DNA of 64,000 nucleotides from an uncultured Gammaproteobacteria bacterium (GTDB lineage: Bacteria > Pseudomonadota > Gammaproteobacteria > GCA-002705445 > GCA-002716945): NCBI GenBank assembly GCA_902535975.1, contig CACAVP010000001.1, positions 6,352-70,351 of the forward strand, in the 5' to 3' direction. Both the position numbers and the translations under genes were made by a program. The first letter of the stretch is position 1. Every line of letters begins with the position of its first letter. Of this stretch, positions 8,024-60,033 are shown piece by piece. The notes under the pieces are model-generated. The model worked only from the letters and a program-made list of their open reading frames with translations. It searched no databases and had not been told where the DNA came from.

Positions 8024-8028
8024 GGTGC

Positions 8029-8571: not shown

Positions 8572-8574
8572 TTG

Positions 8575-40330: not shown

Positions 40331-40344
40331 AGTATAAGTTTACC

Positions 40345-40853: not shown

Positions 40854-42884
40854 CTATTTTACAAAAGAATAAAATGAGTATAGCATTTTATTATTTACAT
40901 GTAATGCTTTTCCCTTATCAATAATTTCTTTATACCAATATTGATTAGATACATTCATTCTATAAACATATACACTCTCTTTTTTATAAGTAAAAGCCCT
41001 ATCCTCATAACATTGATGAACATTAGAGCATCTTGCTAGAACATTTTCAAAATCGTTCAAATGCATCTGAGAAACATAGAAAATTAAATCGGTACTATCT
41101 TTTAAATTACATTCATCAATAAAATCGGTAATAAATTCGCTATCACATGTTTCTGCGTCAATGTTCGCCCTTGCAAAGTTAATATTGTATTGACCAGAAA
41201 CGTATTTTTTAATGATAGAATCTTCCATCTTTTTTGGTGGCAAGAAGTTATTTTTTTTTATAAGTCCATAATGTCCCTGATGCACAACGTGTGGCATCTT
41301 TAACATATAAATATGCATTGGTGGATTATACTTCATTTGTTCAATAGTTTTTTTAAGACTAGAAGAGGATGTCGTATCGTACCAAAATAATAAATTATAT
41401 TTCGATTGATTATCACTTAAGAGATTAAACATTGGTATTGAAGGTGTGGTTAAGATATTATTGTTTTCATTTTTTTGAGCAAAAGAAATAATATCATGTG
41501 TAAATTTGTCCATATGTATACCTCTAAAAATACCACTCGAAAATGATCTTTCATTTTTAATGTTATCTATGATGCTATTTGTTTTATATCCCCACCATTC
41601 ATATGAAGGATTAACAAGTTTATTTATTCCAAAAAAGACAGTTACAGTAATTATGGGCAAGATAGTATTTCTTAAAATATAGCTATCATCAGCGTTGTGA
41701 CAATATTTCTTGATCACAAAAATTAACTCTGCAAAAAATAACGCAAGTAAGATTTCTAAACTTACAGAATTAAAACCAGCTGTAGTTGTTCCGCAGTACG
41801 CAAGTGCATATAACGGTATACACAACAACACCTCACCTTTGGAGTTATTTCTTAAAAGTCGTAACAGAGGCCAAGATAGTGCGAAGACGTAAAGCAGCGC
41901 TGTTTTTACTTTAAATATGATAAAAATAGATATTATTAATACGAGAATTAGTATCAGGTAGAGATGTGATCGGGCGTTAACATTAGATATTCCGATGAAT
42001 GTTGAAATATTTTGGTAGTAATTTCCTATGAATGAAGCAAGTTTTTCTTTATATGATTGGATTAGAAAATATACAGCATACACGAAGGTTATCAGTAATG
42101 CAGATACTGTTATGATTGCTCTATTACCTGGATCTAGAATAAACCTAGACAAAACGACGAATATAGACCCTTTTGGTGTATCAAGCGAGAAGATTGTTAC
42201 CCATGAAGGAGTTATGTAGGTCGTATAAGCTAATAATAAGGCTATACTCACCAAGAATACAAGATTCTTCTTTAGAATACCTAAAAAATTATAGCCATAG
42301 AGGATTAGAAATCCATTTAGATATAACAATAACCCAAAACCATAAATTACACCGATATTATGTTTAGTAAGGATTAGTAGACCTATTAATAATCCCGAAA
42401 ACAGAAATGTCTTATTTTTTATTTTATTACTTGCGCTTGGCAAAATGTAAATTGTGAGAGCAACAATAAGCGATACAATAGTGTGATAGTCTTTAGCAAC
42501 AAATGTTGAATTGCTTATTATTAAAAAAAATACTAATAATGAACTAATGATAGCAGAGTGAATGTCAGTATATTTTTTTAAGATTAAGAAAATTATATAA
42601 AAGTTTAATGCGTGCAATAAGGCGAATATATATCTCAAAGAAATAAAATCTAATCCAAAGAGATCTATTAATCTACTAAATACATGGACTGTTAAAGGGG
42701 GTAAAAAATAATTATATTCTTTATAAATATCTACTCCACTGTTTACATATACAGCAAAGCTTTCAAACCATCCCTCTGTGATGAAGAACTGATACTTAGA
42801 AATAAAATAATTAAAAATTAATATAACAGAAAAAAAAGCTATGTAGATGGCTAAGGATATAATATTTTTTTTATCAGTCTTCAA
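40854..42884 (-). CDS. large polytopic membrane protein with C-terminal soluble domain (GtrC/GT-C-like glycosyltransferase candidate)
   Basis: ~12 N-terminal TM helices plus ~250 aa hydrophilic C-terminus. Follows the GtrA-like gene. Confidence 0.3.
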   Translation of the reverse strand: MKTDKKNIISLAIYIAFFSVILIFNYFISKYQFFITEGWFESFAVYVNSGVDIYKEYNYFLPPLTVHVFSRLIDLFGLDFISLRYIFALLHALNFYIIFLILKKYTDIHSAIISSLLVFFLIISNSTFVAKDYHTIVSLIVALTIYILPSASNKIKNKTFLFSGLLIGLLILTKHNIGVIYGFGLLLYLNGFLILYGYNFLGILKKNLVFLVSIALLLAYTTYITPSWVTIFSLDTPKGSIFVVLSRFILDPGNRAIITVSALLITFVYAVYFLIQSYKEKLASFIGNYYQNISTFIGISNVNARSHLYLILILVLIISIFIIFKVKTALLYVFALSWPLLRLLRNNSKGEVLLCIPLYALAYCGTTTAGFNSVSLEILLALFFAELIFVIKKYCHNADDSYILRNTILPIITVTVFFGINKLVNPSYEWWGYKTNSIIDNIKNERSFSSGIFRGIHMDKFTHDIISFAQKNENNNILTTPSIPMFNLLSDNQSKYNLLFWYDTTSSSSLKKTIEQMKYNPPMHIYMLKMPHVVHQGHYGLIKKNNFLPPKKMEDSIIKKYVSGQYNINFARANIDAETCDSEFITDFIDECNLKDSTDLIFYVSQMHLNDFENVLARCSNVHQCYEDRAFTYKKESVYVYRMNVSNQYWYKEIIDKGKALHVNNKMLYSFYSFVK

Positions 42885-42931: not shown

Positions 42932-44749
42932 TTAATTTATTTTTTTGTTCGTAAGAATGACTATTTCATCATAATTAAGGCTTTTGTTGAAATATGTTCC
43001 ATCATTAATAGTATTATATATTTCATCGTTTGCCATTAAACCTGCATCTGGGTTGCCTTTATAACTCAGGCCAATTATGTAATCTACGTCATTTTTTATT
43101 ATCTCTATAATATTATCAGACGAGACCTCCCTATATGAGGTTCCTAAGTGCCACCACAAAGGGAGTCCTGATGGTGGCACGATATTATACTTTGCATATA
43201 GATATTCAATTCTTGATAAAAATAGGATTTTCCTATTTTTAAGTTTATCTTGGTTGTCCTTAAAGAAACTCTCGACACTCTTCTCATAACGATAATGATA
43301 TTGTGATGTTTTATGATTTTTGAAAAATTCATCATCAAGAATTGCAGTATAGTCATTCCTATCAATAGGTGGCCCGGCAGTTAGAAGCTTTAATCTATAA
43401 AATCCCTCAAGAGAGAGGGAAACTATAATTATTATAGCCCATGGAGCTATAGTTTTTATAGTTGTTGAATCATAGGAATTATTTGCGATGAATGCTATCG
43501 CAATTGACAGAATAAGTATCCCGAAAGATGAAGACCTTACATCAAAACTTTGCAGAATTATAATAAATGTCAGTAATACACCAAAGAATCCCCATCCGAA
43601 CAAAATTAATTTATGCATACTAAATTGATCAGTAAAATCTTTTAGAACTCTATTTTTAATCAATGGTATCAGGAAATATATTGTTGTTATGAACAAGAAT
43701 AAGATTGGGATAATTTCCCAATTCCTTGATACCAATAAAAAGAAAAATGCAAAAAGGCCCAGCGTCCATGAAGGTGTAGGCCGATTGAATAGTCTCGATG
43801 AGATCAATTCTAATGTAAAAATAAGGATAAGTAGGAATTCAAAAAAATATAAAGAGTATTCTTTTAATCGTCCTCCAGATAAATCAAATAGATTAAATGT
43901 AAGTAATCCTGCATTAATAAAACCATGGATAGCAGACCTCTCACTCCCTATCATCGATAAATCATATATGTATTTGTTTATATCAAAAAATATAAAATTA
44001 GTTATTAGATATAGTGTTAAATAAAAAATAATACTTAAGTAAAAAATCCATATTAGGGTTAACTTTATTCGTTGATATATATTTATCTTAGTATCAAACA
44101 ATATCCATGTAGCAAGAAGCAAAGAATTCATTACTGCAAAACCCACACCTGTATTAGCTCGCATAAAACATAAAAACGATAAAATGAAAGCTAATAGAAT
44201 AATAGAAGGAGATGTTATCTTATTATAGTGCCTGTTGATGATTATTATGTACAAAAGAAAGGTTGAAAATGCTGCCATCACATTACTAGCATCATGAAGG
44301 TAAATAAAACCATCAGTTATTAAAGGCAATATGGTGGCAAATAAAAAAGCATAAAAAATTATTATGTTAGATTTTTTCGAGTTTAGATGATAATAAGTAC
44401 CGACTACAGCAAAGATAGATGTATAGATAATTAATCCATTAGTAAATAAATTCCATGTGACTCCATCATTGATAACAGCCATCAATTTTAAAATTACTGC
44501 AAAGCCAGGAGAAAAAGCATTATCAACAAAATCATGAAAGCTCTGACCGCTGTACATTGCTTGGGCAAGAGAAACAATAGGTGCGAGATCAAAACCTGCA
44601 AAACCTTTTGATCCTATAAAGGATGAATAGATTGCAGCTATCGTAAATACGAATGTCACAAAAAGAGCTTCTAGAAAATTTATTTTTTTAATAGCGTTCA
44701 ACAGAGGTTTCTCGTATTGTATAATCGGTATTTCCTGATCATTCTCCAA
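42932..44749 (-). CDS. large polytopic membrane protein (second GtrC/GT-C-like candidate, same layout as the neighbour)
   Basis: Same architecture as the 40854..42884 product. No verified catalytic motif. Confidence 0.3.
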   Translation of the reverse strand: MENDQEIPIIQYEKPLLNAIKKINFLEALFVTFVFTIAAIYSSFIGSKGFAGFDLAPIVSLAQAMYSGQSFHDFVDNAFSPGFAVILKLMAVINDGVTWNLFTNGLIIYTSIFAVVGTYYHLNSKKSNIIIFYAFLFATILPLITDGFIYLHDASNVMAAFSTFLLYIIIINRHYNKITSPSIILLAFILSFLCFMRANTGVGFAVMNSLLLATWILFDTKINIYQRIKLTLIWIFYLSIIFYLTLYLITNFIFFDINKYIYDLSMIGSERSAIHGFINAGLLTFNLFDLSGGRLKEYSLYFFEFLLILIFTLELISSRLFNRPTPSWTLGLFAFFFLLVSRNWEIIPILFLFITTIYFLIPLIKNRVLKDFTDQFSMHKLILFGWGFFGVLLTFIIILQSFDVRSSSFGILILSIAIAFIANNSYDSTTIKTIAPWAIIIIVSLSLEGFYRLKLLTAGPPIDRNDYTAILDDEFFKNHKTSQYHYRYEKSVESFFKDNQDKLKNRKILFLSRIEYLYAKYNIVPPSGLPLWWHLGTSYREVSSDNIIEIIKNDVDYIIGLSYKGNPDAGLMANDEIYNTINDGTYFNKSLNYDEIVILTNKKIN

Positions 44750-46524: not shown

Positions 46525-48031
46525 ATACTTATTCACTCTAATTCTTGGATTACTAATAATATTAGATAATTTATCCTTTGTATATTTTAATTATGCGAAA
46601 GAGATAGCTCCATCTCTCTTATATATTTTTGGTTTTTCATTTTTGATTTTTTCTGTTTTCTATTTTTTATTTAAAAAAACAATCTTTATAAATTATGTCA
46701 CTAGTTTTTATCTATTAACATTAGTGATGACATTTAAACTTCTTCAGTACTCATTTATAGCAAAATTAGATACTTTTTATTTATTCGTGTTATCAGTTTT
46801 AGTTTTTATTTTTATTAAATTATTTTTTGATAAAAAAAGAACTATAGATTTATTAATTATCGTTTTTTTTGTTTCCTCAACTTCGTTAATTTCAAATTAT
46901 CTAACTCAAAATGAAAATATTAATGATATTAAATATGAAATAACTAATGATCATAATAATTTTATTGATCAACTCTCTTCAATTAAATTAAAAAGTAAGC
47001 CAAATATATATTTAATAGGTTTTGATTCAATGACATCTAAGTCATGGCAAAAAAAATATTTTGGTTATGAAGAGAGTTATATTGAAACGTTAGATAAGTA
47101 CTATGAATCATACTCTGGATTTAATTTATACGTGCCAACTCTTCATGCTTTAAATGCGCTCATGAGACTAGATCAAGATAAAAAAATCTATGGTCCATTA
47201 ATGCCAACACTTGGATTAGTTAATGGAAAATATCGAAGTCCATTACTTTATTTGATGAAAAGTAATGGTTACACAACAAACTTTTACTATTATGATACTT
47301 ACTTTGGGGAAAAGGGAAGATATCTTGATAATCTTTATATTAATGAAAAGCAGATTTTAACTCATACTGCATTATGTCAGTCAAGCAATAGCATACAAAG
47401 AAAATTTTTCTTAATGGGAGCTTGTAATGAAGACACACTGATAGATGGTATATTGGGATATACGGGACCTGGGGTTGACATATATGAATGGCCAAAGATC
47501 ACTATCTCATTAGCTATAGATAGATCGATAAAATCAGGTAACCCTAATATAAATATTTTATTTTTTTATCGCCCTATAGGACATGTTCCGTCGGCATTTG
47601 ACTATAATAATGAACAACAGTTAGTAGATTATAAAAAATTCTATAGTCGCCATAGTGTTATAGCTAGAGAATTACTAGAGAAAATAAGAAATAAAATTTT
47701 AAGTAAAGACCCCAAAGCATTAGTTGTTGTTTTTGGTGATCATGGTCCTTACCTATCAAAAGGAGTAGATTGCTCTAAACAAGAAAATAAAACTTTTTGC
47801 ATACATAATACATACGCAGCAAATGTTAGTGTATTAAAAACAAATAATAGATGTTCATCAGAGTATAAATCATTCATCCGAGGAAATGTTATCACGCCAA
47901 GTGAAATTGTATTTTCTAAGTTGTCCTGCCTTTCGAAAAATCCTGTTCTTTTAAGACAACAAATAAAGTATAGAAATTCTTCAGAAACGAAGCCTGGATT
48001 TTTTGAAAATTTAGATAATTATTTGTACTAG
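46514..48031 (+). CDS. membrane-anchored alkaline-phosphatase-superfamily protein (phospho-substituent transferase/sulfatase-like)
   Basis: Five N-terminal TM helices. Soluble domain with IYLIGFDSMTS and VVVFGDHGPYL (GDHG) metal-ligand motifs. Confidence 0.4.
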   Translation: MKNKYLFTLILGLLIILDNLSFVYFNYAKEIAPSLLYIFGFSFLIFSVFYFLFKKTIFINYVTSFYLLTLVMTFKLLQYSFIAKLDTFYLFVLSVLVFIFIKLFFDKKRTIDLLIIVFFVSSTSLISNYLTQNENINDIKYEITNDHNNFIDQLSSIKLKSKPNIYLIGFDSMTSKSWQKKYFGYEESYIETLDKYYESYSGFNLYVPTLHALNALMRLDQDKKIYGPLMPTLGLVNGKYRSPLLYLMKSNGYTTNFYYYDTYFGEKGRYLDNLYINEKQILTHTALCQSSNSIQRKFFLMGACNEDTLIDGILGYTGPGVDIYEWPKITISLAIDRSIKSGNPNINILFFYRPIGHVPSAFDYNNEQQLVDYKKFYSRHSVIARELLEKIRNKILSKDPKALVVVFGDHGPYLSKGVDCSKQENKTFCIHNTYAANVSVLKTNNRCSSEYKSFIRGNVITPSEIVFSKLSCLSKNPVLLRQQIKYRNSSETKPGFFENLDNYLY

Positions 48032-48720
48032 AATTTTTTAAGTAAAGTTTGAGATATAATATAATCTTCGGGTATTCCGATATCGATAAAAATCCCTTCG
48101 AAGTTACATACACCTATTTTTTCAAAATTTTTTTTGATTGCTAAAAAATCTTGCTCGAAAGAAAAATTTAATCCTTCAGTAAAATCATCTAGCTGATTAG
48201 TTTTTAAATAATAAACACCTGCATTAATTATACCAGGCTCATTACTTCCTTTTTCCTCAAACCCAAGAAGATTGTTATCTTTAAAAGAAATTGAGCCGTA
48301 TCTTGATACATTTTTAACAAATATTCCACATAGAATTGATTTATTAATCTTGTTAAACGTTGACTCCACTAAATCATAATTAATGTCTGCAAAAGTATCT
48401 CCATTAAATACAAAAATACAATCTTCTGTTGCATGAGAAATTCCTAGCTTAATTGCACCACCGGTTCCTAACATGTCTTCTTCTTTTGAAAAAATTATTT
48501 CAGTACCAAAATCTTCTTTTGAAAAATAGTCTATAATATATTGACTTTTATAGCCTATAGATAGGATTACTCTTTTAAAATTATTTTTAACTAAATGTTT
48601 TATTAATATCTCTAGAAAGGGTCTCCCATTAATTAACGCCATTGGTTTAGGAATATCTTTTACTAGAGGTTTAAGCCTTGTTCCAAGTCCGCCTGCAAGA
48701 ATTATTGCTTCTCTAGTCAT
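48028..48720 (-). CDS. sugar-1-phosphate nucleotidyltransferase, short form (HddC-like heptose-1-P guanylyltransferase candidate)
   Basis: AIILAGGLGTRL..L....PKPM. 230 aa with no C-terminal extension. In an operon with the heptose genes. Confidence 0.55.
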   Translation of the reverse strand: MTREAIILAGGLGTRLKPLVKDIPKPMALINGRPFLEILIKHLVKNNFKRVILSIGYKSQYIIDYFSKEDFGTEIIFSKEEDMLGTGGAIKLGISHATEDCIFVFNGDTFADINYDLVESTFNKINKSILCGIFVKNVSRYGSISFKDNNLLGFEEKGSNEPGIINAGVYYLKTNQLDDFTEGLNFSFEQDFLAIKKNFEKIGVCNFEGIFIDIGIPEDYIISQTLLKKF

Positions 48721-48744
48721 AAAATTTATTATTTAGTTTGGTAA

Positions 48745-49776
48745 TCACCTATTAAGAGGAATTTTTCCTCTTTTGATTTCAACTCGCCAATGTTCTAGCA
48801 AGTCACCAAACATTTTTTTTACTGGTATTTCTGGCTGCCAGTCAATAACTGAGGAAATTTTTGTATTATCAAACATTTGATAATCTGCATCAATTGGCCT
48901 TAATCTTGATTCTTCTTCAATTACAGTAATATCGTTTCTTGTGCTCATGCTCAACATGATATCTATGACCTCTGTCAATTTATAAGCCTCTTTTCCAGCA
49001 ATATTAAAATAGTCTCCTTTAGAGATTTTATTTTCATAACATGCGCATAAAAGCAAATAATACGCCCTTACCGCGTCTCTAGTATCTTGAAATGTCCTAA
49101 TACTAGACAAATTACCAACAAAAATATTTGGATCTTGAAGCCCAGCTTCAATGAGAGCTATCTGTTTCGCAACAGTACTCTCAAAAAAAACGTCACTTCT
49201 TCTCGGACCTGAATGTGTACCCATCCTAGTCACAAATGTTTTCATTTTGTATGCTTCGCCATAAAATCTTCCAAGGTGATCAGTTGCTATTTTACTTATA
49301 CTATATGGACTCGACCCATGAAAAGGAGTTGATTCATTAATCTTTTCCCCCGAAGGTTGCTTCCCATAAACTTCGCTTGAGGAACATATATGTATTGACG
49401 GGTCATATGAACAATTCTCTCCTACTTTTTTAATGCTCTCTAATAGATTCGTTGTACCGATGATATTCGTTTGTAATGTTTCTAATGGTATATCGAAGGA
49501 TGTTTTTGGGAATGATTGAGCTGCTAGATGCGATATAAATTTAGGCTTTTCTCTCAAAATAATATTGTAAATCGACACATAATCATTTAAGTCACCATAA
49601 CAGAGATATATTCTTTCTTTATTATTTATCTTTGTTGTTAGGTGATATAGGTTGTCCATAGGTTCTTGCCATCTCATAAATCCAATTATGTTTAAATCTG
49701 TATTTTCCAGAATATAATCAGCCAGTTGAGAACCTACTTGTCCAGTGATTCCAGTAATTAGTATTGAATTATTCAT
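48745..49776 (-). CDS. GDP-mannose/GDP-manno-heptose 4,6-dehydratase (Gmd/DmhA-like)
   Basis: ILITGITGQVGS...YGDL.D......I....P..I.HLAAQS matches the Gmd family. 343 aa. Confidence 0.75.
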   Translation of the reverse strand: MNNSILITGITGQVGSQLADYILENTDLNIIGFMRWQEPMDNLYHLTTKINNKERIYLCYGDLNDYVSIYNIILREKPKFISHLAAQSFPKTSFDIPLETLQTNIIGTTNLLESIKKVGENCSYDPSIHICSSSEVYGKQPSGEKINESTPFHGSSPYSISKIATDHLGRFYGEAYKMKTFVTRMGTHSGPRRSDVFFESTVAKQIALIEAGLQDPNIFVGNLSSIRTFQDTRDAVRAYYLLLCACYENKISKGDYFNIAGKEAYKLTEVIDIMLSMSTRNDITVIEEESRLRPIDADYQMFDNTKISSVIDWQPEIPVKKMFGDLLEHWRVEIKRGKIPLNR

Positions 49777-50876
49777 ATATACCTTTCAAAACATGAGAGC
49801 CATACTCTATATCCTTTAAAAAATTTGAGGAAAGTATTCTTCTCATCATTACTCAATTGATGAGTTTCATCGAGCTTTTTATCAAGTTCATTCAGTAAGT
49901 TTAAAGAAACATCAAAATATGTTTTACCGGATAGCTGAATTGATCTAAGCCAACCGACAAAAGTTTCAGTATTTTGATTTCCAAATATTTCAAGTTCTAG
50001 GTCATGCCATAAATTATGATCATTTCTATCCTGTTTAACCAGTGGAAAGCCAAAACTTATTGCATCATCAAAATAGTCGGCAACTCGCTTTGTAAAATAA
50101 CTTGCCCAAATGTCATCAAAGCGTCCAATATGAGGGCTAAGAAAATAGGATGGTATCGCTTCTCTGGCTAGGGCAGTATTTTGTGAGTTAAATGGGCACC
50201 ATGTATCTTTTTCTAGAGCAAAGTTATCATCACGTATATATCCAGTCACATCAATTGGATTAGTAAGTCTAGTTATTGCATCAATGTCAGGATCTCCTAA
50301 CCAAAGCCCACCATTAACAACCACCTTTTTACTTTTAATAGATTCAATTTTTTTAGCTCTTGAAATTTGTCTTTCTGATATGGGGTAACCTCGAGCAAAA
50401 AATTCTCTACTATTCTTATCAATTAAAAAATCACAAATATTTAGCCATGAGGAAGAGGTCTCTAAAACCGGCAAACTAATAGTTGATCCAACATTTTGAT
50501 GACCATCTAAATACCCCTCACGCTCTATAAAATTATCATCATCTATGGTGATTATCACATCAGAGTTATTTTCATATGCGAAAAGTATACCCACATTTCT
50601 TCTTTGAACACAATTCCATGGTAAAAAGTTTAGAAGTTCAGGATATTTCTCTAGATAGTTATTCTGTTTCTCGACATCAAAGTATTGAAAATCATAATTG
50701 AACTTATCATTTAGAGATTCTACGTATGGTTTAGCCTTTTTATCGGTTTTTTTATCTCCAATAACGATAAAAGATACGTTCTTATAATCATGATTGATAC
50801 AATCATTTGCATAGTCTTCAAGTAAAACTGGATTATTGATTGTAGTTGTAACTATTGAGAATTTTTTATTAGTCAT
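49773..50876 (-). CDS. GT75 / reversibly-glycosylated-polypeptide-like protein (putative NDP-sugar pyranose-furanose mutase)
   Basis: VIITIDDDNF, FARGYPISERQ, GGLWLGDPDIDAITRL and GRFDDIWASYF blocks parallel plant RGP/UDP-arabinopyranose mutase motifs. Confidence 0.5.
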   Translation of the reverse strand: MTNKKFSIVTTTINNPVLLEDYANDCINHDYKNVSFIVIGDKKTDKKAKPYVESLNDKFNYDFQYFDVEKQNNYLEKYPELLNFLPWNCVQRRNVGILFAYENNSDVIITIDDDNFIEREGYLDGHQNVGSTISLPVLETSSSWLNICDFLIDKNSREFFARGYPISERQISRAKKIESIKSKKVVVNGGLWLGDPDIDAITRLTNPIDVTGYIRDDNFALEKDTWCPFNSQNTALAREAIPSYFLSPHIGRFDDIWASYFTKRVADYFDDAISFGFPLVKQDRNDHNLWHDLELEIFGNQNTETFVGWLRSIQLSGKTYFDVSLNLLNELDKKLDETHQLSNDEKNTFLKFFKGYRVWLSCFERYI

Positions 50877-50878
50877 TG

Positions 50879-51847
50879 TTATCTCTCTCTTATTTTACTC
50901 TGATTCTCCTTAAACCAGTTTATAGTTTTTAACAGACCTGATTTTAGATCAACTTTAGGCTTCCAATTAAGCTTTGTTACTTTATCAGTATTAAATTCTC
51001 TCTCTTTTTGTCCGGCTGGTTGGTTTGTATCATAGTTAAGTTGACCTTTAAAGTCGGTTAATTCAGCTATTGTTTCAGCTAGATGCCTAATCGATGTTTG
51101 AAGACCAGTGGCAATATTGATAGAACCTTCAAATTTGTTATCCACTAGAAGTACTATTGCAGAAATTAAGTCATCTATAAACAGAAAATCTCTCTTAGCC
51201 TCACCATTCCCCCAAATATCAATTGTATTTTGCTTTTTTTGAACACATTCAACAAATCTTCTTATTAGTCCAGGAACAACATGCGAATTGACTACATGAA
51301 AGTTATCATGTGGACCGTAGATATTTGCAGGAATACAATATGCGTACTTAATTTTACTTTTTTCATTTATTGCTCTCAGGTGAACCAACAAACCTCTTTT
51401 TGCATAAGCATATGCATCATTTGTTACTTCAGGAATCCCATCAAGAAAGTCAGCCTCATTCAGCATGCGTCCCTCTAAAATTTTAGGGTAGGCGCACCCA
51501 GTGCCCATCCCAAAAAAATACTCTACATTATTTTCTGATGATGCATTTACGATGTTAGTATTAATTAGAACATTATCGCTATAAAAGTCAGCCTTATTCG
51601 TATTATTTGCATGAATTCCCCCTACTTTGGCTGCGAGATGTATTACAACATTAGGCTTGAAATCAGCAAAAAGTTGATCAGTTATAGATTTGTTTCTCAA
51701 ATCATATTTGCTGCCTATAGACAATATAGATTCATTTTTATTCTCGTAGTAGTTTGAAAGATTCTTACCAATTAAGCCTGTACCGCCTGTAATTAATATC
51801 TTTCGATTCATCATTTTTAGATTATTTTGCATCCCAGCTCTCAGCAC
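50879..51847 (-). CDS. GDP-L-fucose synthase-like 3,5-epimerase/4-reductase (Fcl/WcaG family)
   Basis: AAKVGGIHANNT..ADF and NIYGPHDNFH..NSHVVPGLIRRF are near-identical to Fcl signature blocks. Confidence 0.75.
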   Translation of the reverse strand: MLRAGMQNNLKMMNRKILITGGTGLIGKNLSNYYENKNESILSIGSKYDLRNKSITDQLFADFKPNVVIHLAAKVGGIHANNTNKADFYSDNVLINTNIVNASSENNVEYFFGMGTGCAYPKILEGRMLNEADFLDGIPEVTNDAYAYAKRGLLVHLRAINEKSKIKYAYCIPANIYGPHDNFHVVNSHVVPGLIRRFVECVQKKQNTIDIWGNGEAKRDFLFIDDLISAIVLLVDNKFEGSINIATGLQTSIRHLAETIAELTDFKGQLNYDTNQPAGQKEREFNTDKVTKLNWKPKVDLKSGLLKTINWFKENQSKIRER

Positions 51848-52862
51848 CTATAAGAGTAAATACACAGGGATAGAAAAATCCCTGAGGACACAGCTCTCTT
51901 AATTTGCTTATTACAGATATTCTCTTGGATAGAGGGACAATAAACATCATGAATCCTCCACCACCTGCACCCAATACTTTAGCAGAGAGTGCGCCTGCGC
52001 TATAAGCTGATTTTATATATTTATCAATTTCACCAGTTGTAATAGAAGTTGATGTCTCTTTCTTTATTTCCCAGTTTTGTTCTAAGCCTTTTGCAAATTC
52101 AAATATATCCCCTCTTAGTAGCGCATTTTTCATTGGAGCAACAAGCTCTTTGATTTTTTCAAGCTGAAGATAGATATCAGAATCACCACTCTCAAGTTTT
52201 TTTGTCTGACTATCAATAATATTGGCGGATTCTCTTGATTGGCCTGTATAGTAAAGTACTATGTTTGACTCAAGAATAGATACGTACTCATTTTTTAAAC
52301 GCAGTGGATTAACTATTACATGATCTCCTGGATTAAATTCAATAAAATTAAATCCTCCAAATGATGCAGCATACTGATCTTGTCTGCCTCCATTTAGTTT
52401 CATTTTTACTCTCTCAACTAAAAAAGCATGTCTTGCTAGTTCATAATCCCCGAGACCCAAATTAAGAAAGTCATTAAAAGCTTGAAGTATAGCTATCGTG
52501 AGAGTTGATGATGCTCCCAATCCTGAGCCTATTGGTGCATCTGAGTGTGTTTTTATTCTTACAGGAATAGGTTTGTCATTATTGAAGTGATTTATTACAT
52601 ACTTATATATTTCATGATGTAATTTCAATTGAAATGTTTGATCATCAAAGATTTTATCTAAATCTACAGATTCATTCAAACTTAAGTCTAAAGATTCATA
52701 AAATACTCTATCAGTAGATACCTCAAGCTCACAATAAGCATACATTGCTATAGTAGCATTCAGCACAGCGCCACCTCTATCGTCTACAAAGGGAGATAAC
52801 TCTGTGCCTCCACCAGCAAAACTCAATCTTAGTGGGGCTCTAGCTGTAACTTTTTGTTTCAT
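51822..52862 (-). CDS. hddA: GHMP kinase, D-glycero-alpha-D-manno-heptose 7-phosphate kinase-like
   Basis: RAPLRLSFAGGGTE N-terminus and PIGSGLGASSTL GHMP motif. Confidence 0.65.
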   Translation of the reverse strand: MKQKVTARAPLRLSFAGGGTELSPFVDDRGGAVLNATIAMYAYCELEVSTDRVFYESLDLSLNESVDLDKIFDDQTFQLKLHHEIYKYVINHFNNDKPIPVRIKTHSDAPIGSGLGASSTLTIAILQAFNDFLNLGLGDYELARHAFLVERVKMKLNGGRQDQYAASFGGFNFIEFNPGDHVIVNPLRLKNEYVSILESNIVLYYTGQSRESANIIDSQTKKLESGDSDIYLQLEKIKELVAPMKNALLRGDIFEFAKGLEQNWEIKKETSTSITTGEIDKYIKSAYSAGALSAKVLGAGGGGFMMFIVPLSKRISVISKLRELCPQGFFYPCVFTLIGAESWDAK

Positions 52863-53259
52863 GATGTTTTCTATGTAAAAAATATTTTCTTAATGAAAAG
52901 TTTAATATATAAGTGAAGAATATTAATAAAATTCTGGAGTATAAATAATATACACCAAATATATCAGTAAGGATCCACATTGCAAAAACTGTGAATCCTA
53001 AGACTGCCGTTGATATCAAAATATAGCTTCCGAATTCTAATGTAAAGTTATCTCTAAATCTCCTTGATGAAAAGACCCAATTAACTGAAATAAAATAATT
53101 AACTACTGATCCAACAAAAAATCCTATAGTAGTCCCATATAAATAATAGATATCGAAGTATGTGACTAATAGGTACAATGTCGAGATATCTGATAGTGTA
53201 GCAATGCCCCCTACTACAGCATATTTAAGGCCCTCACTGATTAAACGTTTATCGAGCAC
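52840..53259 (-). CDS. GtrA-family membrane protein
   Basis: 139 aa. YAVVGGIATLSDISTLYLLV. Four helices. Confidence 0.55.
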   Translation of the reverse strand: MLDKRLISEGLKYAVVGGIATLSDISTLYLLVTYFDIYYLYGTTIGFFVGSVVNYFISVNWVFSSRRFRDNFTLEFGSYILISTAVLGFTVFAMWILTDIFGVYYLYSRILLIFFTYILNFSLRKYFLHRKHHETKSYS

Positions 53260-53983
53260 TTTTGAAAAACCTATTGAAAGTATAATATATCAAAAGATAT
53301 ATAGAATTTTTTATGGATTTTGATGAAACGCTTGCAGATGGTGATTTATATGTTATCGGGGTCTCTATACATTTGAATTTTTTCATTATATATCTTATTT
53401 CTGTTTGATAAAAATGTGAGGTTGACTTTATCCCATAATTGATAAGATGCGAAACTGCTTCTCTTTTCATAGCAATAAATCCTGAGGTTCCGTCTTTATA
53501 CGACATACCAAGCAATAAATTAGAAAACATAGTCCCTAACCTTGATAAATAATGTCTAGATGGACGTGAGTTATAAATAGAGCCCCCCTTTATAAATCGT
53601 GACCCAAAGACACAATCGTAATTTTTGTCTAAAAGTTCTAAAAACTTATAAATATCATCAGGATTATGTGATAACCCTCCATCCATCTCAATCACCGCAT
53701 CATGATTATCATCGTATGCTTTAGTATATCCTAGTATATATGCATCAATTGCATTCTTGTTATCTTCACCCCACAGAAAAACAAATCTATCATCTTTAGC
53801 ACTTATTTCCTCACATATTGATCTTGTGTTATCTTTAGATGCATTGTCTACAACTAGATAAATAGTAAATTTGTATTGTAATGAGGCAATCGATGAACAA
53901 ATGCTTTTATACAACTCGCGAGTAGTTTTGCTCTCATTTGCTAGCGGAATAACTATGCCAATAGAATCTAATTTATCATTCAT
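53249..53983 (-). CDS. GT2 polyprenyl-phosphate glycosyltransferase, soluble DPM1-like
   Basis: IVIPLANE, VVDNASKDNT and EMDGGLSHNP motifs. 244 aa. Confidence 0.6.
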   Translation of the reverse strand: MNDKLDSIGIVIPLANESKTTRELYKSICSSIASLQYKFTIYLVVDNASKDNTRSICEEISAKDDRFVFLWGEDNKNAIDAYILGYTKAYDDNHDAVIEMDGGLSHNPDDIYKFLELLDKNYDCVFGSRFIKGGSIYNSRPSRHYLSRLGTMFSNLLLGMSYKDGTSGFIAMKREAVSHLINYGIKSTSHFYQTEIRYIMKKFKCIETPITYKSPSASVSSKSIKNSIYLLIYYTFNRFFKSAR

Positions 53984-54051
53984 ATCAAGCCTTTTATACG
54001 TTCATCAGTTATCACGATGAAATACGTTTTTTAATATCTAAAATTTAATCA

Positions 54052-54597
54052 GTGTATAATAGGTGTATTGTACATGAATATAGTATGAAATATTATAAAA
54101 AAGAAATCCCGGAAATAATAATCTTTGAGCCTAGTTTGCATGAAGATGAAAGGGGCTGTTTTTATGAGAGTTATGTTAAAGAATTTTATGATAATGCAAT
54201 TGGTAGAGATGTAAATTTTATTCAGGAAAATGTTTCAGTTTCGAAACTAGGTGTATTAAGAGGTATGCATTATCAAACGCAGCCTTATGAACAGGCTAAG
54301 CTAATCAGTGTAGCTAAAGGAGAAGTATTTGATGTTGCATTAGATATAAGAGAAGATTCTCTGACTTATGGTAAATGGACAAGTGAAATAATATCATCTG
54401 ATAATAATAAGAGAATGTGGATACCAGAGGGTTTTGCACATGGTTTTCTTGCTTTAACTGATGATGTTGTCCTAAATTACAAGACTACAGAATATTACTC
54501 GCCTGACCATGAGATAATTTTTAAATATAATGATCCTAAATTTTCTATCGATTGGCCAAAGGAAATTAACTACATAATTTCAGAAAAAGATTCATAA
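54052..54597 (+). CDS. rfbC: dTDP-4-dehydrorhamnose 3,5-epimerase
   Basis: Cupin. RGCFYES, RGMHYQ and WIPEGFAHGF motifs. Confidence 0.85.
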   Translation: MYNRCIVHEYSMKYYKKEIPEIIIFEPSLHEDERGCFYESYVKEFYDNAIGRDVNFIQENVSVSKLGVLRGMHYQTQPYEQAKLISVAKGEVFDVALDIREDSLTYGKWTSEIISSDNNKRMWIPEGFAHGFLALTDDVVLNYKTTEYYSPDHEIIFKYNDPKFSIDWPKEINYIISEKDS

Positions 54598-54605
54598 GAT
54601 CAGAT

Positions 54606-55655
54606 TTAATTATTCCGATAGCCTCTGCCGAGTCTGACATTAGATTTATGCTCTTTCAGAATATTAGAGGTCCATTCTTTATTTTCTAAGTACCAGTCAA
54701 CAGTTTTTTCTAGACCTTCTATAATATCAACCTGTGGATTCCATAATAGCTCGTTGATAATTTTACTCGCATCAATAGCATATCTTCTATCGTGGCCAGG
54801 TCGATCTGACACATATTCAATTAAATAATCATAAGATTTATCTGAGGGTACTTTCTCATCTAGAATCCTACAAATATTTTTGACTATATCAATGTTATAA
54901 CACTCATTATCAGATCCTATCATGTAGGTCTCACCTACTTTCCCATTTTCCATTACTGAAAAGAGCGCATCAACGTGATCATCGACATATATCCAATCAC
55001 GAATCTGTTTACCATCGCCATATATTGGTATTTTCCTGCCCAAAAGTGCATTTGTAATTGTGAGGGGAATCAACTTCTCTGGGAACTGATAAGGGCCATA
55101 ATTGTTTGAACAATTTGTGATTATTGCAGGAATATGATGCGTATTAATCCAGGATCTTACCAAATGATCGCTTGAAGCCTTTGATACAGAATATGGATTG
55201 AGAGGATCGTATTTTGTATCTTCGTTGAACTTAATATTATTTTTCACAGATCCAAAAACTTCATCAGTAGAAATATGATGAAAAACAATATTATCAGGGC
55301 AGTCCTTTTTAACCCAGTACTTCGTAAATTCATCAAGGAGAACACACGTCCCCATTATATTAGTCGATAACACAGTAAAAGCTGAATCTATAGACCTATC
55401 TACATGACTTTCGGCTGCCAGATGAAAAATATATTCAGGTTGAAAATTTTCAAAGATATTATGTATCTTATCCTGATCTCTAATATCTGTCTGCTCAAAA
55501 GAATATTTTGGATGTTTCTCGATTGAGACAAGGTTTGTGAGTGAACCGGCATAGGAAAGACAGTCGACATTTAAAACAGTATGACCTCTCTTTATGGCTG
55601 ATAGGGTAACATTTGTACCGATAAAACCTGCGCCCCCTGTAATTAGAATTCGCAT
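54606..55655 (-). CDS. rfbB: dTDP-glucose 4,6-dehydratase
   Basis: MRILITGGAGFIG. YSVSK. RmlB length. Confidence 0.85.
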   Translation of the reverse strand: MRILITGGAGFIGTNVTLSAIKRGHTVLNVDCLSYAGSLTNLVSIEKHPKYSFEQTDIRDQDKIHNIFENFQPEYIFHLAAESHVDRSIDSAFTVLSTNIMGTCVLLDEFTKYWVKKDCPDNIVFHHISTDEVFGSVKNNIKFNEDTKYDPLNPYSVSKASSDHLVRSWINTHHIPAIITNCSNNYGPYQFPEKLIPLTITNALLGRKIPIYGDGKQIRDWIYVDDHVDALFSVMENGKVGETYMIGSDNECYNIDIVKNICRILDEKVPSDKSYDYLIEYVSDRPGHDRRYAIDASKIINELLWNPQVDIIEGLEKTVDWYLENKEWTSNILKEHKSNVRLGRGYRNN

Positions 55656-57018: not shown

Positions 57019-57618
57019 TCACTCAGAGTCTTTAACATCTCCGAAAAGCTTGAACTCAACTGACTCACAGATCATATGACCAGCGATAGCATGGACTTCC
57101 TGAATCTTTGGAGTTTGGTCAGAATTAACTGAAATCACAACATCACAATTATCTGCTAGAAGTTTAGTCTCGCACCCAGACATTGCAATTATGCTTTTGA
57201 CTAGTGGCCTAGCGTCTTTTAAAAGTTCAAGAATATTCTCTGATTTTCCAGACGTAGTGTAAACTATCAACGTATCATCGTTTGTCCCAAAAGCTTGTAT
57301 TTGTCTTGAAAAGACTTTTTCATATCCATAATCATTAGAAATACATGTTAAGTTAGAAGTATTGGTAGTTAATGCTATCGCAGGAAGAGACGGTCTATTA
57401 AAATTAAATCTGCCAACAAACTCAGCGCATATATGTTGACTATCTGCTGCGCTCCCTCCATTACCTGCAAGCATGACTTTCCCTTTTTTATTGTATGTAT
57501 CAATAATCAATTCTGAGGCTTTTTTGAGAGATTCTAAGAATTCTCTAGAATTTAGAGATTCATTAATTACTTCTTTGGATTTCTCCAAGGAATTCATGAG
57601 TAGGGTTTCAATGTTCAT
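57019..57618 (-). CDS. gmhA: phosphoheptose (sedoheptulose-7-phosphate) isomerase
   Basis: SIS domain. GNGGSAADSQHICAEFVGRF aligns with E. coli GmhA [21 protein letters not shown]. Confidence 0.75.
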   Translation of the reverse strand: MNIETLLMNSLEKSKEVINESLNSREFLESLKKASELIIDTYNKKGKVMLAGNGGSAADSQHICAEFVGRFNFNRPSLPAIALTTNTSNLTCISNDYGYEKVFSRQIQAFGTNDDTLIVYTTSGKSENILELLKDARPLVKSIIAMSGCETKLLADNCDVVISVNSDQTPKIQEVHAIAGHMICESVEFKLFGDVKDSE

Positions 57619-58436: not shown

Positions 58437-58520
58437 TGCCCAGGGCCGGAGTCGAACCGGCACGAGATTGCTCTCGAGGGATTTTAAGTCCCTTGCGTCT
58501 ACCAATTCCGCCACCCGGGC
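58437..58520 (-). tRNA. tRNA-Leu (anticodon UAA)
   Basis: Reverse complement GCCCGGGTGGCGGAATTGGTAGACGC...CTTAAAA loop...GGTTCGACTCC. Class II long arm. Confidence 0.85.
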
Positions 58521-58696
58521 TGTAATTATATTTGTATGTAGACATAATTCTTTTGTTTATATAGTTCGTAATTCACATAAATATAGGAAGTAATATGCTA
58601 AGTAAGATAACATATCATGGTAAATTTTAGTATAGATTTATAAGCTATGGAAAGATTAATTATTATGCGCGAACGGATATTCTTTGGCTGCAATCA

Positions 58697-59938: not shown

Positions 59939-59954
59939 AGTGAAAAAGCTTACA

Positions 59955-60025
59955 AGGCTAAGGTCGGAATCGAACCGGCGTTGACGGCTTTGCAGGCCGC
60001 TGCATTACCACTCTGCCACTTAGCC
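59955..60025 (-). tRNA. tRNA-Cys (anticodon GCA)
   Basis: Reverse complement GGCTAAGTGGCAGAG...CCTGCAAAGCC...GGTTCGATTCCGACCTTAGCCT. Confidence 0.8.
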
Positions 60026-60033
60026 AAATTTTG

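Follow-up and report, generated by a model that had tools for sequence, protein, structure and literature searches.

Bacterial GT75 mutases and the locus analyzed

The GT75 family includes two characterized and crystallized bacterial enzymes, MtdL and Hyg20, which are GDP-L-galactose/GDP-L-fucose mutases (PMC9937993). The substitutions D87N and D87S abolish MtdL activity, whereas active plant UAMs lack Asp87 and have Ser at that position. In plant RGP5, which has been described as inactive, neither His287 nor the beta-phosphate Arg is conserved. Furthermore, the UDP-using plant enzymes have Pro and Asp at the positions corresponding to MtdL residues 13 and 86, respectively (PMC9937993).

A relative of these mutases is encoded in the stretch of 64,000 nucleotides from an uncultured marine Gammaproteobacteria bacterium that was analyzed here (hereafter the window). 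The gene belongs to a set of seven minus-strand genes at 48028..53983, which are listed below in the order of transcription, followed by one gene located outside of this set:

53249..53983, minus strand: soluble DPM1/PgfS/ArnC-like GT2, a predicted polyprenyl-phosphate glycosyltransferase and the first operon gene (PF00535, 78 bits)
52840..53259, minus strand: GtrA-family small membrane protein (PF04138 GtrA/DPMS TM domain, 67.7 bits)
51822..52862, minus strand: HddA (NF049969, E=1.5e-87, 294 bits; PDB WcbL 4USM, E=3e-83)
50879..51847, minus strand: Fcl-type GDP-4-keto-6-deoxy-sugar 3,5-epimerase/4-reductase (NF047922, E=3e-76; E. coli GDP-fucose synthetase 1E6U, E=1e-59)
49773..50876, minus strand: GT75-family protein (PF03214 RGP, 42.4 bits, E=6.5e-11; gathering score 23.8)
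48745..49776, minus strand: 4,6-dehydratase DmhA (PDB 7US5, E=5.4e-155, 519 bits)
48028..48720, minus strand: HddC (NF049965, E=1.4e-55; Y. pseudotuberculosis HddC 5XHW/6JQ8, E=1e-40)
57019..57618, minus strand: sedoheptulose-7-phosphate isomerase GmhA (PF13580 SIS_2; TIGR00441, E=3.4e-52)

The original prediction described a seven-gene operon here, and all of its open reading frames and gene calls were reproduced by profile, PDB, and fold searches. The successive gaps are -11, -23, -26, +2, -4, and +24 nt, the first of these being the 11-nt overlap between the GT2 and GtrA genes. The true start of the Fcl-like gene is probably the ATG at 51814 or 51811, as the alignment of its product to 1E6U begins at residue 13; using ATG 51814 instead of GTG 51847 turns the -26 gap into about +7. 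Consensus scans for promoters and terminators gave scores no better than those of shuffled sequence, such that operon status is drawn from the tight spacing and conserved gene order rather than from such signals.

The GT75-family protein

The proposed GT75 resemblance held in both profile and structure searches. In addition to the PF03214 match above the gathering score, the protein matches MtdL (7XPR/7YUA) with a phmmer E-value of 5.8e-44 as a single sequence, and the family profile matches MtdL over its full length (E=1.7e-78). The AF2 model (pLDDT 94.4) aligns with MtdL in Foldseek at a TM score of 0.90-0.92 (rmsd 2.2 A, 30% identity) and with rice UAM2, one of the plant arabinose mutases, at a TM score of 0.65. 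The island open reading frames scanned included no Glf-type mutase.

The subfamily has more than 2000 homologs, mostly in metagenome-assembled genomes (MAGs). No variation was seen among 32 aligned homologs at T11/I13 (T13/I15 in MtdL), D41, R93, D112-D114, N115, R162, D197, S231, Q232, R252, D255, R284, and H287. The protein retains the nucleophilic Arg, the DDD motif, and the catalytic Asp residues, as well as the determinants of the GDP type, namely Thr at MtdL position 13 and a small non-acidic residue at MtdL position 86. Two residues on which MtdL activity depends are exchanged in the window protein: the Mn ligand His287 for Gln282, and Asp87 for Val90. Gln at the former position and Val/Ile at the latter are found in 118-120 of the 120 closest homologs. 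The near-invariance of the Gln indicates a selected active-site variant rather than decay. The protein is predicted to be a metal-dependent, flavin-free GDP-6-deoxyheptopyranose/furanose mutase of a "Gln287" subfamily. The original prediction regarded bacterial GT75 mutases acting on GDP-heptoses as uncharacterized. This holds for the heptose substrate; the class of GT75 GDP-sugar mutases itself is already known from MtdL and Hyg20 (PMC9937993).

Heptose pathway genes

Four genes (DmhA, HddA, HddC, and GmhA) have heptose-specific enzymes as their top characterized or structural homologs. The best match of DmhA, 7US5, is the C. jejuni heptose 4,6-dehydratase, whereas GDP-mannose dehydratases reach only 1e-28 to 1e-32 and the gmd profile TIGR01472 scores only 154 bits, its cutoff being 415. 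HddA also matches 3K85 (E=6e-81) and C. jejuni 4N3O (E=7e-71), although its 294 bits fall below the NF049969 equivalog cutoff of 600. GmhA, which feeds the heptose pathway from outside the operon, lies upstream at a distance of 3.0 kb from the start of the operon, not 4 kb away as first stated. GmhB is missing from the window, as the original prediction had noted for the island; a tblastn search of all 64 kb with the GmhB of a related locus (L001, see below) gave a best E-value of 2.4.

The closest relatives of the Fcl-like enzyme are true GDP-fucose synthases, and C. jejuni heptose C4-reductases match it far more weakly (1e-29 to 1e-37). It retains the epimerization pair Cys109/His179 and the reductase residues Tyr136 and Lys140, with Thr at the position of the catalytic Ser107. 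Together with the dehydratase match, these conserved residues support the proposal that dehydratase and reductase yield a GDP-6-deoxyheptose. A neighboring cupin scores 177 bits as RmlC versus 63-74 bits for heptose epimerases; it is a genuine dTDP-rhamnose enzyme outside the heptose pathway. Finally, a ManC gene (GDP-mannose), scoring above its equivalog cutoff, lies 1.7 kb upstream and makes a GDP-hexose substrate possible.

Lipid-loading genes and candidate transferases

The best NCBIfam matches of the GT2 are PgfS (4.7e-18), ArnC (5.6e-11), AglJ, and dolichyl-P hexose transferase. Among PDB entries, it is closest to the catalytic domain of the Dol-P-Man synthase of P. furiosus (5MLZ, E=6.5e-17), with ArnC structures ranking next, and no hydrophobic segment was found in the protein. 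The donor specificity of a GT2 is not readable from sequence. Membership of the next protein in the GtrA family was confirmed, and the flippase role originally given to it is the usual assumption; it may act either as a lipid-sugar flippase or as a membrane partner of the GT2. Alternatively, it may correspond to the membrane domain of an archaeal-DPMS-like synthase, encoded here as a separate protein; a phmmer comparison with the TM domain of PfDPMS gave no match.

Two further genes in the window encode large membrane proteins:

40854..42884, minus strand: GT-C-type polytopic glycosyltransferase (PF13231 PMT_2, 36.6 bits; gathering score 26.1)
42932..44749, minus strand: 605-aa polytopic membrane protein with about 10 hydrophobic segments

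The first has at least 10 hydrophobic segments, a C-terminal soluble part of about 250 aa, and a 48% homolog in L001; a PDB sequence search gave no match. It is a candidate periplasmic transferase using a polyprenyl-P-sugar. The second matched no Pfam family, has 78 relatives among 1.84e9 representatives, and gave an unusable AF2 model (pLDDT 48). Its 56% homolog is located directly after HddC in L001. It is possibly a second lipid-sugar-dependent transferase, with a tentative link to the operon.

Comparative genomics

Neighborhoods were compared among 80 loci picked by similarity, all from MAGs and many on incomplete contigs. The gene order is kept in L001 (73% GT75 identity) and L087/L088 (66%), giving three related marine operons. 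GtrA follows the GT2 in these loci, and only they and the window place the two genes side by side. GmhB is found inside the cluster in L001, and the GmhA ortholog is within the operon in L087/L088. Among distant loci from unrelated phyla, 17 of the 80 have two or more of GmhA/HddA/HddC/GmhB next to a GT75 of this type, in most cases along with a 50%-identical DmhA. In a neighbor-joining tree, the window falls in a clade with heptose genes in 20 of 27 loci. Moreover, a cassette of DmhA-GmhA-HddA-HddC-(GmhB)-GT75-reductase-cupin is present in gut MAGs of Alphaproteobacteria, Elusimicrobia, Melainabacteria, Akkermansia, Succinivibrio, and Mailhella. These patterns favor the proposed action of the GT75 protein on a GDP-(6-deoxy)heptose.

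Loading onto polyprenyl phosphate also gains comparative support. A short DPM1-like GT2 is found within 5.4 kb of GT75 in about 41 of 81 loci. In 36 loci, which span CPR, Acidobacteria, Nitrospirales, and Proteobacteria, the distance is no more than 1.5 kb; this GT2 is 240-280 aa long, TM-less, and similar to DPM1/AglJ/PgfS. The spacing has two modes, with the genes either adjacent or separated by one SDR gene. Large polytopic or GT-C-like neighbors, several of which resemble PMT_2 (GT-C), occur in 25 of 41 loci with the short GT2 versus 10 of 40 without it, and L003, L015, and L035 unite DmhA, the short GT2, and GT75.

Proposed route and alternative explanations

The operon may encode a self-contained pathway that converts sedoheptulose-7-phosphate into a 6-deoxy-heptofuranose bound to a lipid carrier. 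DmhA would dehydrate the GDP-heptose to GDP-6-deoxy-4-keto-D-lyxo-heptose, and the Fcl-type enzyme would epimerize C3 and C5 and reduce C4. Flavin-free ring contraction by the GT75 protein would then give the furanose, a reaction that MtdL and Hyg20 carry out on GDP-L-fucose and GDP-L-galactose; in this chemistry, the conserved Arg162 would attack C1, Asp255 would serve as the base, and the DDD motif would hold a divalent metal, with Gln282 as a further ligand where MtdL has its histidine. Because mutases of this kind have an equilibrium that lies toward the pyranose, the GT2, assisted at the membrane by GtrA, would draw off the furanose by transferring it to polyprenyl phosphate. This would probably yield polyprenyl-P-6-deoxy-L-galacto-heptofuranose, and a GT-C enzyme (40854-42884, perhaps also 42932-44749) would attach the sugar to a surface glycan in the periplasm. 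We consider this complete route somewhat better than an even prospect.

The lipid step could be dispensable if cytoplasmic glycosyltransferases use the GDP-heptofuranose directly, with the GT2 and GtrA loading another sugar or the pyranose for an unrelated Gtr-like side-chain modification. The gut cassettes lack the DPM1-like GT2 and pair GT75 with GT1/GT4-type transferases, indicating that a mutase of this type does not require lipid loading. Moreover, GtrB and ArnC relatives use UDP-sugars, and the island has other NDP-sugar pathways (dTDP-Rha, CDP-hexose, and GDP-Man) and a second GtrA. However, three diverged operons show translational coupling of the heptose genes with both GT2 and GtrA, and the adjacent or one-gene spacing in 36 loci would be difficult to account for if GT2 and GT75 were not functionally coupled. 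We regard direct use as unlikely.

Two other explanations concern the GT75 protein itself, and we regard both as quite improbable. One holds that it is a mutase of a GDP-hexose (such as GDP-L-fucose or GDP-L-galactose), which a promiscuous DmhA and the Fcl-like enzyme would form from the GDP-mannose supplied by ManC. The nearby ManC, the affinity of the Fcl-like enzyme to GDP-fucose synthases, the substrates of MtdL and Hyg20 (PMC9937993), and the subfamily members in L007, L011, and L057, which are accompanied by Gmd/Fcl or ManC only, all agree with this. Nonetheless, the operon itself includes HddA and HddC (and in L087/L088 also GmhA), the dehydratase matches the heptose enzyme with about 400 bits more than it does any Gmd, and the window has no canonical Gmd. 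The other holds that the protein is not a mutase but glycosylates itself on arginine, acts as an ordinary glycosyltransferase, or serves as a non-catalytic partner in the manner of class-2 plant RGPs, such that the glycan would contain 6-deoxy-heptopyranose. Its GT-A fold is common to real transferases, and the changes at Asp87 and His287 affect positions linked to loss of activity in MtdL and to the inactive RGP5 (PMC9937993). Against this, all other catalytic and substrate-binding residues are invariant, including the nucleophilic Arg, both Asp partners, the beta-phosphate Arg, and the DDD motif, the replacing Gln appears to be under selection, and active plant UAMs also lack Asp87.

Taken together, these findings favor the route through GDP-6-deoxyheptose and polyprenyl phosphate. 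The enzyme type is known; a GDP-heptose substrate and the coupling to a lipid carrier, both undescribed so far, would be new for the GT75 family.

Operon Organization and Heptose-Pathway Genes

All seven open reading frames (ORFs) that the original prediction placed at 48028-53983 were found, each on the minus strand. Successive genes are separated by -11, -23, -26, +2, -4, and +24 nt. The -26 nt overlap vanishes if the Fcl-like gene starts at ATG 51814/51811, which is probably its real start because only from residue 13 onward does this ORF align with the E. coli GDP-fucose synthetase. Scanning of positions 47500-54700 for consensus promoters and terminators returned 38 and 3 sites, respectively, compared with 36.7 and 2.6 in shuffled sequences. 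As these signals are no richer than in the shuffles, we infer operon status from the gene packing and the conserved gene order.

Four genes have best characterized relatives that are specific to heptose metabolism, namely GmhA, HddA, HddC, and DmhA. Together with the gene for the Fcl-type enzyme and the GT75 gene, they are as follows.

Genes of the predicted GDP-6-deoxyheptose pathway in the window
48028-48720, minus strand: HddC (Yersinia HddC, 1e-40)
48745-49776, minus strand: DmhA-like dehydratase
49773-50876, minus strand: GT75 protein, predicted GDP-6-deoxyheptose mutase (PF03214, MtdL similarity, and fold)
50879-51847, minus strand: Fcl-type epimerase/reductase (nearest relatives are true GDP-fucose synthetases; 1E6U, 1e-59)
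51822-52862, minus strand: HddA (heptose-7-phosphate kinases WcbL, 3e-83, and Campylobacter jejuni 4N3O, 7e-71)
57019-57618, minus strand: GmhA (best matches heptose-specific; outside the operon)

Assignment of 48745-49776 as an ordinary Gmd was rejected, as GDP-mannose dehydratases score only about 100-115 bits, compared with 519 bits for the closely related C. jejuni DmhA. The Fcl-type protein retains Cys109 and His179 for C3/C5 epimerization as well as the reductase Tyr/Lys pair, and the C. jejuni heptose C4-reductases are far more distant from it than the GDP-fucose synthetases are. The C4-reductase required for a 4-keto-6-deoxy intermediate is probably this short-chain dehydrogenase/reductase (SDR). 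The adjoining cupin on the other strand (54052-54597) was considered as a heptose C3/C5 epimerase resembling C. jejuni DdahB/MlghB and was rejected, given its 177 bits to true RmlC versus 63-74 bits to heptose epimerases; RmlB and RmlD are also encoded in the window. Since the cupin is a real RmlC, epimerization in the heptose pathway should come from the Fcl-type enzyme. The absence of GmhB from the island, as originally noted, agrees with a tblastn search of the 64-kb window that detected none (best E = 2.4). GmhB is found in the cluster of L001, a related marine locus, and in five other loci, and the host of the window presumably encodes it elsewhere in its genome.

The GT75 Protein and Its Active Site

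The product of 49773-50876 matches PF03214 at 42.4 bits (gathering score 23.8, E = 6.5e-11) in a partial alignment that covers residues 159-337 only. Similarity to MtdL is much more extensive, with E = 5.8e-44 in phmmer and E = 1.7e-78 over MtdL residues 7-372 when a profile of 32 homologs was used. The AlphaFold (AF2) model (pLDDT 94.4, pTM 0.94) superimposes on six MtdL crystal structures with TM scores of 0.90-0.92, an rmsd of 2.2 A, and 30% identity; the match of rice UAM2 to the model has a TM score of only 0.65. PF03214 is the sole family matched, without GLF or NAD_binding_8 domains, and no GLF match was found among the island ORFs scanned. The GT75 similarity first noticed in the sequence is thus upheld by profile and structure alike, and a Glf-type enzyme is not indicated.

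MtdL and Hyg20 are bacterial GT75 enzymes that interconvert the pyranose and furanose forms of GDP-L-galactose and GDP-L-fucose, using Mn2+ and an arginine nucleophile without flavin (PMC9937993). Because these two have been characterized, the enzyme class was already known, a point that the original prediction did not mention. The fold and chemistry are therefore not new; the active-site signature is distinct, and the predicted substrate and the proposed downstream coupling would be new. The subfamily of the window protein has >2000 members, nearly all of them without a name.

The residues defined for MtdL (PMC9937993) were mapped onto the window protein. Those kept, in MtdL numbering, are Thr13/Ile15 (T11/I13 in the window protein), Asp40, Arg90, the DDD motif, Asn112, Arg159 (R162), Asp195, Ser228-Gln229, Arg257, Asp260, Arg289, and His292. 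Among 32 homologs and 80 loci, D112-D113-D114, R162, D197, and D255 (MtdL D109-D110-D111, R159, Asp195, and Asp260) are invariant, as are the phosphate- and sugar-binding residues S231, Q232, R252, R284, and H287 (MtdL Ser228-Gln229, Arg257, Arg289, and His292). Three positions differ, namely Asn42 (Lys43 in the window protein), Asp87 (Val90), and the Mn ligand His287 (Gln282). Gln stands in for His287 in 79 of the 82 locus sequences and in 118 of the 120 closest database proteins; His is kept only in two Gemmataceae loci and two database proteins. The Asp87 position is aliphatic (I/V/L/M) in all 120 closest homologs. In MtdL, Asp87 lies near the sugar C4-OH and is essential, and it is Ser in active plant UDP-arabinopyranose mutases (UAMs) (PMC9937993). 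GDP specificity in MtdL involves Thr13, Asn42, and Ser86 (PMC9937993). At the positions that separate GDP from UDP users, the window protein keeps Thr11 and has a small, non-acidic Cys89 as in GDP users, and Asn42 is replaced by Lys43.

These substitutions thus define a subfamily and are no accident of the window gene. The near-invariance of the Gln and aliphatic residues, combined with the invariance of the other catalytic positions, speaks for selection of a variant active site and against decay of the enzyme. The same pattern is also the main reason for caution. Two loci from planctomycete MAGs of the Gemmataceae (L079 and L081; GT75 genes at 9926-11164 and 10001-11101, respectively) have the MtdL-type Asp87 and His287, with Thr at position 228. 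These genes occur together with genes for HddA, HddC, GmhB, a DPM1-like GT2, and an Fcl-like protein, and the heptose association therefore extends beyond the Gln subfamily.

Linkage of GT75 to Heptose Genes

In L001 (a Logan contig; GT75 identity 73%), all seven genes recur in unchanged order, followed by homologs of a 605-aa membrane protein and the GT-C candidate found in the window, GmhB, and a second GtrA gene. In L087 and L088 (JGI contigs; 66%), the order is GT2-GtrA-HddA-Fcl-GT75-DmhA-GmhA-HddC, with GmhA inside the operon. L087 also has a flavin-type UDP-galactopyranose mutase (GLF) gene at 7426-8577 and a DUF4422 gene downstream of the heptose/GT75 genes, so both types of furanose mutase coexist in one cluster.

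More distant neighborhoods were compared in 80 loci from species-representative genomes, all of them MAGs, with a best GT75 identity of 48%; a scan of genome contigs found no relative above this value. At least two of GmhA, HddA, HddC, and GmhB lie beside the GT75 gene in 17 of the 80 loci. Thirteen or more of these 17 carry a cassette of DmhA (50%), GmhA, HddA, HddC, in some cases GmhB, GT75, an RmlD-like reductase, and a small cupin, in gut Alphaproteobacteria, Elusimicrobia, Melainabacteria, Akkermansia, Succinivibrio, and Mailhella. In a neighbor-joining tree, the window protein groups with L001, and of the 27 loci in the clade that contains them, 20 carry heptose genes or a gene for a DmhA-like dehydratase. 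This linkage, recurring across phyla, is the strongest evidence for a predicted action of GT75 on GDP-(6-deoxy)heptose, and the 17 loci, L001, L087/L088, and the clade all back the original prediction of this substrate. Within the library searched, no paper tied GT75 to heptoses or to polyprenyl-phosphate carriers, and nothing relevant was returned on RGPs in bacterial gene clusters.

GT2, GtrA, and GT-C Genes

The first gene of the operon encodes a 244-aa GT2 protein without a hydrophobic segment. Among proteins of known structure, it is most similar to the Pyrococcus furiosus Dol-P-Man synthase (PfDPMS), in its catalytic domain, and next to ArnC. Its best NCBIfam matches are PgfS, ArnC, AglJ, and a Dol-P hexose transferase, every one of them a polyprenyl-phosphate glycosyltransferase family and all below the equivalog cutoffs. 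Such short GT2 genes were missed in a BLAST-based context map because of low identity and were found with a local HMM built from five of these proteins, which gave 190-380 bits versus below 80 bits for generic GT2. By this HMM, about 41 of the 81 loci have a short GT2 gene. Of the 39 intact matches, 36 lie within 1.5 kb of GT75, either next to it or with one SDR gene between. DmhA, GT2, and GT75 occur together in L003, L015, and L035. The GT2-SDR-GT75 triad is typically found in CPR bacteria and Acidobacteria. Its conserved form, with a short DPM1/AglJ-like GT2, an SDR epimerase/reductase, and a GT75 in which Gln replaces the MtdL His287, extends over CPR bacteria, Acidobacteria/Bryobacterales, and others (e.g., L069 8237-11086, L054 8109-11161, and L024 8093-11098), and a PMT_2-like membrane protein often adjoins it.

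Large polytopic proteins (400 aa or more, seven or more transmembrane [TM] segments) are encoded within 6 kb more often in loci with GT2 (25 of 41) than in loci without it (10 of 40). Of nine such proteins sampled, five have PMT_2 similarity, two above threshold. Two membrane-protein genes in the window are relevant here.

Large membrane proteins encoded near the operon
40854-42884: GT-C candidate (PMT_2, 36.6 bits, above the gathering score; homolog in L001)
42932-44749: 605-aa membrane protein (about 10 TM segments; the soluble C-terminal part is conserved)

The 605-aa protein has no Pfam family, nor do nine of 10 remote relatives, and it has no detectable similarity to the neighboring GT-C candidate. 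Searching 1.84 billion representatives gave only 78 relatives at E <= 1e-3. Only three close homologs were found, and the L001 homolog directly follows HddC. Its AF2 model has a pLDDT of 48.

The GtrA gene, of the GtrA/DPMS-TM family, overlaps the GT2 gene, and GtrA stands beside GT2 only in close relatives of the window. The flippase role given to it in the original prediction is assumed; GtrA could just as well represent the membrane domain of a DPMS-like synthase, detached from the catalytic part, given the shared Pfam family, the overlapping genes, and a combined length of 383 aa versus 374 aa for PfDPMS. A phmmer comparison of GtrA with the TM domain of PfDPMS gave no match. The further prediction, that the sugar is loaded onto polyprenyl phosphate and transferred in the periplasm, fares well as a general theme of the GT75 subfamily in view of the GT2 and GT-C neighbors. 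It is not universal, since the gut cassettes are without the GT2.

The Surrounding Glycan Island

The operon lies inside a low-GC (26-33%) glycan island at roughly 23.7-60 kb of the window. Other island functions include dTDP-rhamnose, CDP-hexose, GDP-mannose, and NeuB-type genes, a Wzy-like protein, and an initiating Bac_transf enzyme. At the island edge (58437-60106), three tRNA genes bracket the Bac_transf gene (58697-59938), which fits a surface-glycan region that is hypervariable and may have been exchanged. Mid-island, between the Wzy-like and NeuB-like genes, sits a housekeeping gene for formate-tetrahydrofolate ligase (26503-28176; 88-89% identity to proteins of marine Gammaproteobacteria MAGs). 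Copies of the operon with 96% identity are present in reef seawater metagenome assemblies, and the host is an uncultured marine gammaproteobacterium.

Further genes in the island may belong to other sugars. A CDP-hexose-type set at 32591-37223 (nucleotidyltransferase, 4,6-dehydratase-like SDR, further SDR, and thiamine-diphosphate enzyme) is reminiscent of branched-chain, yersiniose-type sugar synthesis, and L001 also has a homolog of the thiamine-diphosphate enzyme. Beside the GT-C candidate, positions 37256-40755 hold a DHQ-synthase-like gene, genes for a 413-aa protein and a 227-aa SDR, and a second GtrA gene, which may form a second lipid-linked sugar pathway. The 413-aa protein has no Pfam match, and its L001 homolog is a weak FGGY kinase match. 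In L001, homologs of the DHQ-synthase-like, 413-aa, and 227-aa SDR genes, unlike those of GtrA and GT-C, adjoin NeuB- and HAD-type genes; the NeuB-like gene of the window (28220-29329) is about 8 kb from this group. Between the operon and the membrane-protein genes, two plus-strand genes that are absent from L001 (45136-48031) may decorate the glycan. One encodes a 462-aa methyltransferase-like protein with a 26% homolog directly after GT75 in L035, and the other a protein of 505 aa, in which a weak sulfatase-type domain is found along with 4-5 TM segments.

Proposed Pathway and Alternatives

In the proposed route, DmhA would convert the GDP-heptose precursor to GDP-6-deoxy-4-keto-heptose, and the Fcl-type enzyme would act on this intermediate. 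GT75 would then convert the pyranose to the furanose, with Arg162 as the nucleophile, Asp255 as the base, and a metal bound by the DDD motif and, probably, by Gln282. GT2/GtrA would move the furanose onto polyprenyl phosphate, and the GT-C enzyme would hand the sugar to a surface glycan. The steps before GT75 are predicted from strong homology, and those of GT75, GT2/GtrA, and GT-C from homology combined with gene neighborhood. We consider the whole chain, from heptose synthesis through GT-C transfer, somewhat better than an even bet.

Three alternatives were weighed. Cytoplasmic transferases may use the furanose while GT2 loads something else; the gut cassettes without the GT2 are compatible with this reading, the frequent proximity of GT2 to GT75 speaks for a shared pathway, and we regard it as unlikely. 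The real substrate could also be a GDP-hexose from ManC-derived GDP-mannose, a sugar for which the island has genes. Set against the heptose-specific relatives of four genes and the recurring linkage, this seems improbable. The same low standing is given to the possibility that the GT75 protein is no mutase, owing to the replacements of His and Asp, as the conservation of these very replacements points to selection.

More tentatively, and with slightly less than even confidence, the polyprenyl-linked heptofuranose route of the window may be one case of a widespread and previously undescribed bacterial module. This module would combine a GT75 that has Gln at its metal site with a short DPM1-like GT2, a GT-C enzyme, and in many cases an SDR, and would turn GDP-pyranoses into furanoses linked to polyprenyl phosphate, for use in glycosylation outside the cytoplasm. 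It is seen in CPR bacteria, Acidobacteria, Nitrospirales, Planctomycetes, and marine Gammaproteobacteria. It would be an NDP-sugar-derived counterpart of mycobacterial decaprenyl-P-arabinofuranose, and the sugar here would be 6-deoxy-L-galacto-heptofuranose, made by a flavin-independent route non-homologous to that of Campylobacter.

Comparison With Characterized Systems

The window enzyme shares with MtdL and Hyg20 the full-length fold (TM 0.90-0.92, 30% identity), the DDD motif, the nucleophilic Arg, and the guanine-site Thr13/Ile15. In all three, the mutase is preceded by a Gmd-type dehydratase and an Fcl-type epimerase/reductase giving an L-galacto-configured GDP-sugar, a product that is predicted for the window. 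Unlike MtdL, it has Gln for His287, Val for Asp87, and Lys for Asn42, and its predicted substrate has seven carbons. MtdL (Marinactinospora thermotolerans, A201A) and Hyg20 (Streptomyces hygroscopicus, hygromycin A) belong to actinomycete antibiotic clusters and are coupled to soluble natural-product glycosyltransferases, whereas the window GT75 lies in a Gram-negative surface-glycan island and is predicted to be coupled to a polyprenyl-P GT2, GtrA, and GT-C. The plant UDP-L-arabinopyranose mutases (RGPs) share PF03214 with the window protein and have the metal-dependent, flavin-free chemistry via arginine that is predicted for it. However, they are much more distant (rice UAM 8CID, E = 8e-9, TM 0.65), use UDP-sugars, and have Pro/Asp where the window GT75 has Thr/Cys.

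The C. jejuni HS:10 and HS:41 capsules have the same early pathway (GmhA, HddA, GmhB, HddC, and DmhA) and lead to GDP-6-deoxy-L-galacto- and GDP-6-deoxy-D-altro-heptofuranose (PMC10680097). The predicted window product is either identical to the HS:10 GDP-6-deoxy-heptofuranose or an isomer of it (PMC10680097). Their mutases, HS10.16 and HS41.15, have been assigned as Glf-type and FADH2-dependent and are themselves still uncharacterized (PMC10680097); FADH2 dependence has been demonstrated for a related HS:41 CDP-sugar mutase (PMC12369002). In C. jejuni, the cupin epimerases and the C4-reductases are distinct enzymes, whereas the window has one bifunctional Fcl-type enzyme and a non-homologous GT75. 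Moreover, the C. jejuni sugar enters an ABC-transporter capsule, with no lipid-monophosphate donor.

Polyprenyl-P loading in the cytoplasm, flipping, and periplasmic transfer would resemble GtrA/GtrB/GtrC O-antigen glucosylation and ArnC/ArnT. However, the window GT2 is without a membrane segment, whereas TM helices form the C-terminal part of GtrB and ArnC, and a GtrA-like domain is fused to PfDPMS. GT2 and GtrA are separate overlapping genes in the window, and a GDP-furanose, the predicted donor, is not known for that enzyme class. Mycobacterial decaprenyl-phospho-D-arabinofuranose (DPA) is, to our knowledge, the only well-known lipid-monophosphate furanose donor for extracytoplasmic GT-C enzymes (Emb/Aft), and the GtrA-family protein Rv3789 is associated with its pathway. 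Nevertheless, DPA synthesis starts from PRPP, takes place on the lipid, and includes a later epimerization, with no NDP-sugar and no pyranose-furanose mutase, and the enzymes have no sequence relation to those of the window beyond the general GT-C and GtrA classes.

Implications

Mammals lack furanose sugars, and the enzymes producing these sugars are therefore targets for drugs and vaccines. We know of only two routes to nucleotide-furanoses, by flavin-dependent Glf-type and metal-dependent GT75 mutases, and of only two assayed bacterial GT75 enzymes, both from actinomycete antibiotic pathways. The hypothesis put forward here is specific and has several independent genomic lines behind it, and is still a prediction. 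The natural active-site variant, in which Gln replaces His at the metal site and Val replaces Asp near C4, bears on the mechanism of GT75 mutases, and the window enzyme could serve as an enzymatic source of GDP-heptofuranoses. More broadly, a large bacterial GT75 subfamily (>2000 sequences, frequent in uncultured lineages and gut MAGs) may serve cell-surface glycan synthesis, may take a seven-carbon GDP-sugar, and may often feed a polyprenyl-phosphate carrier instead of a soluble transferase.
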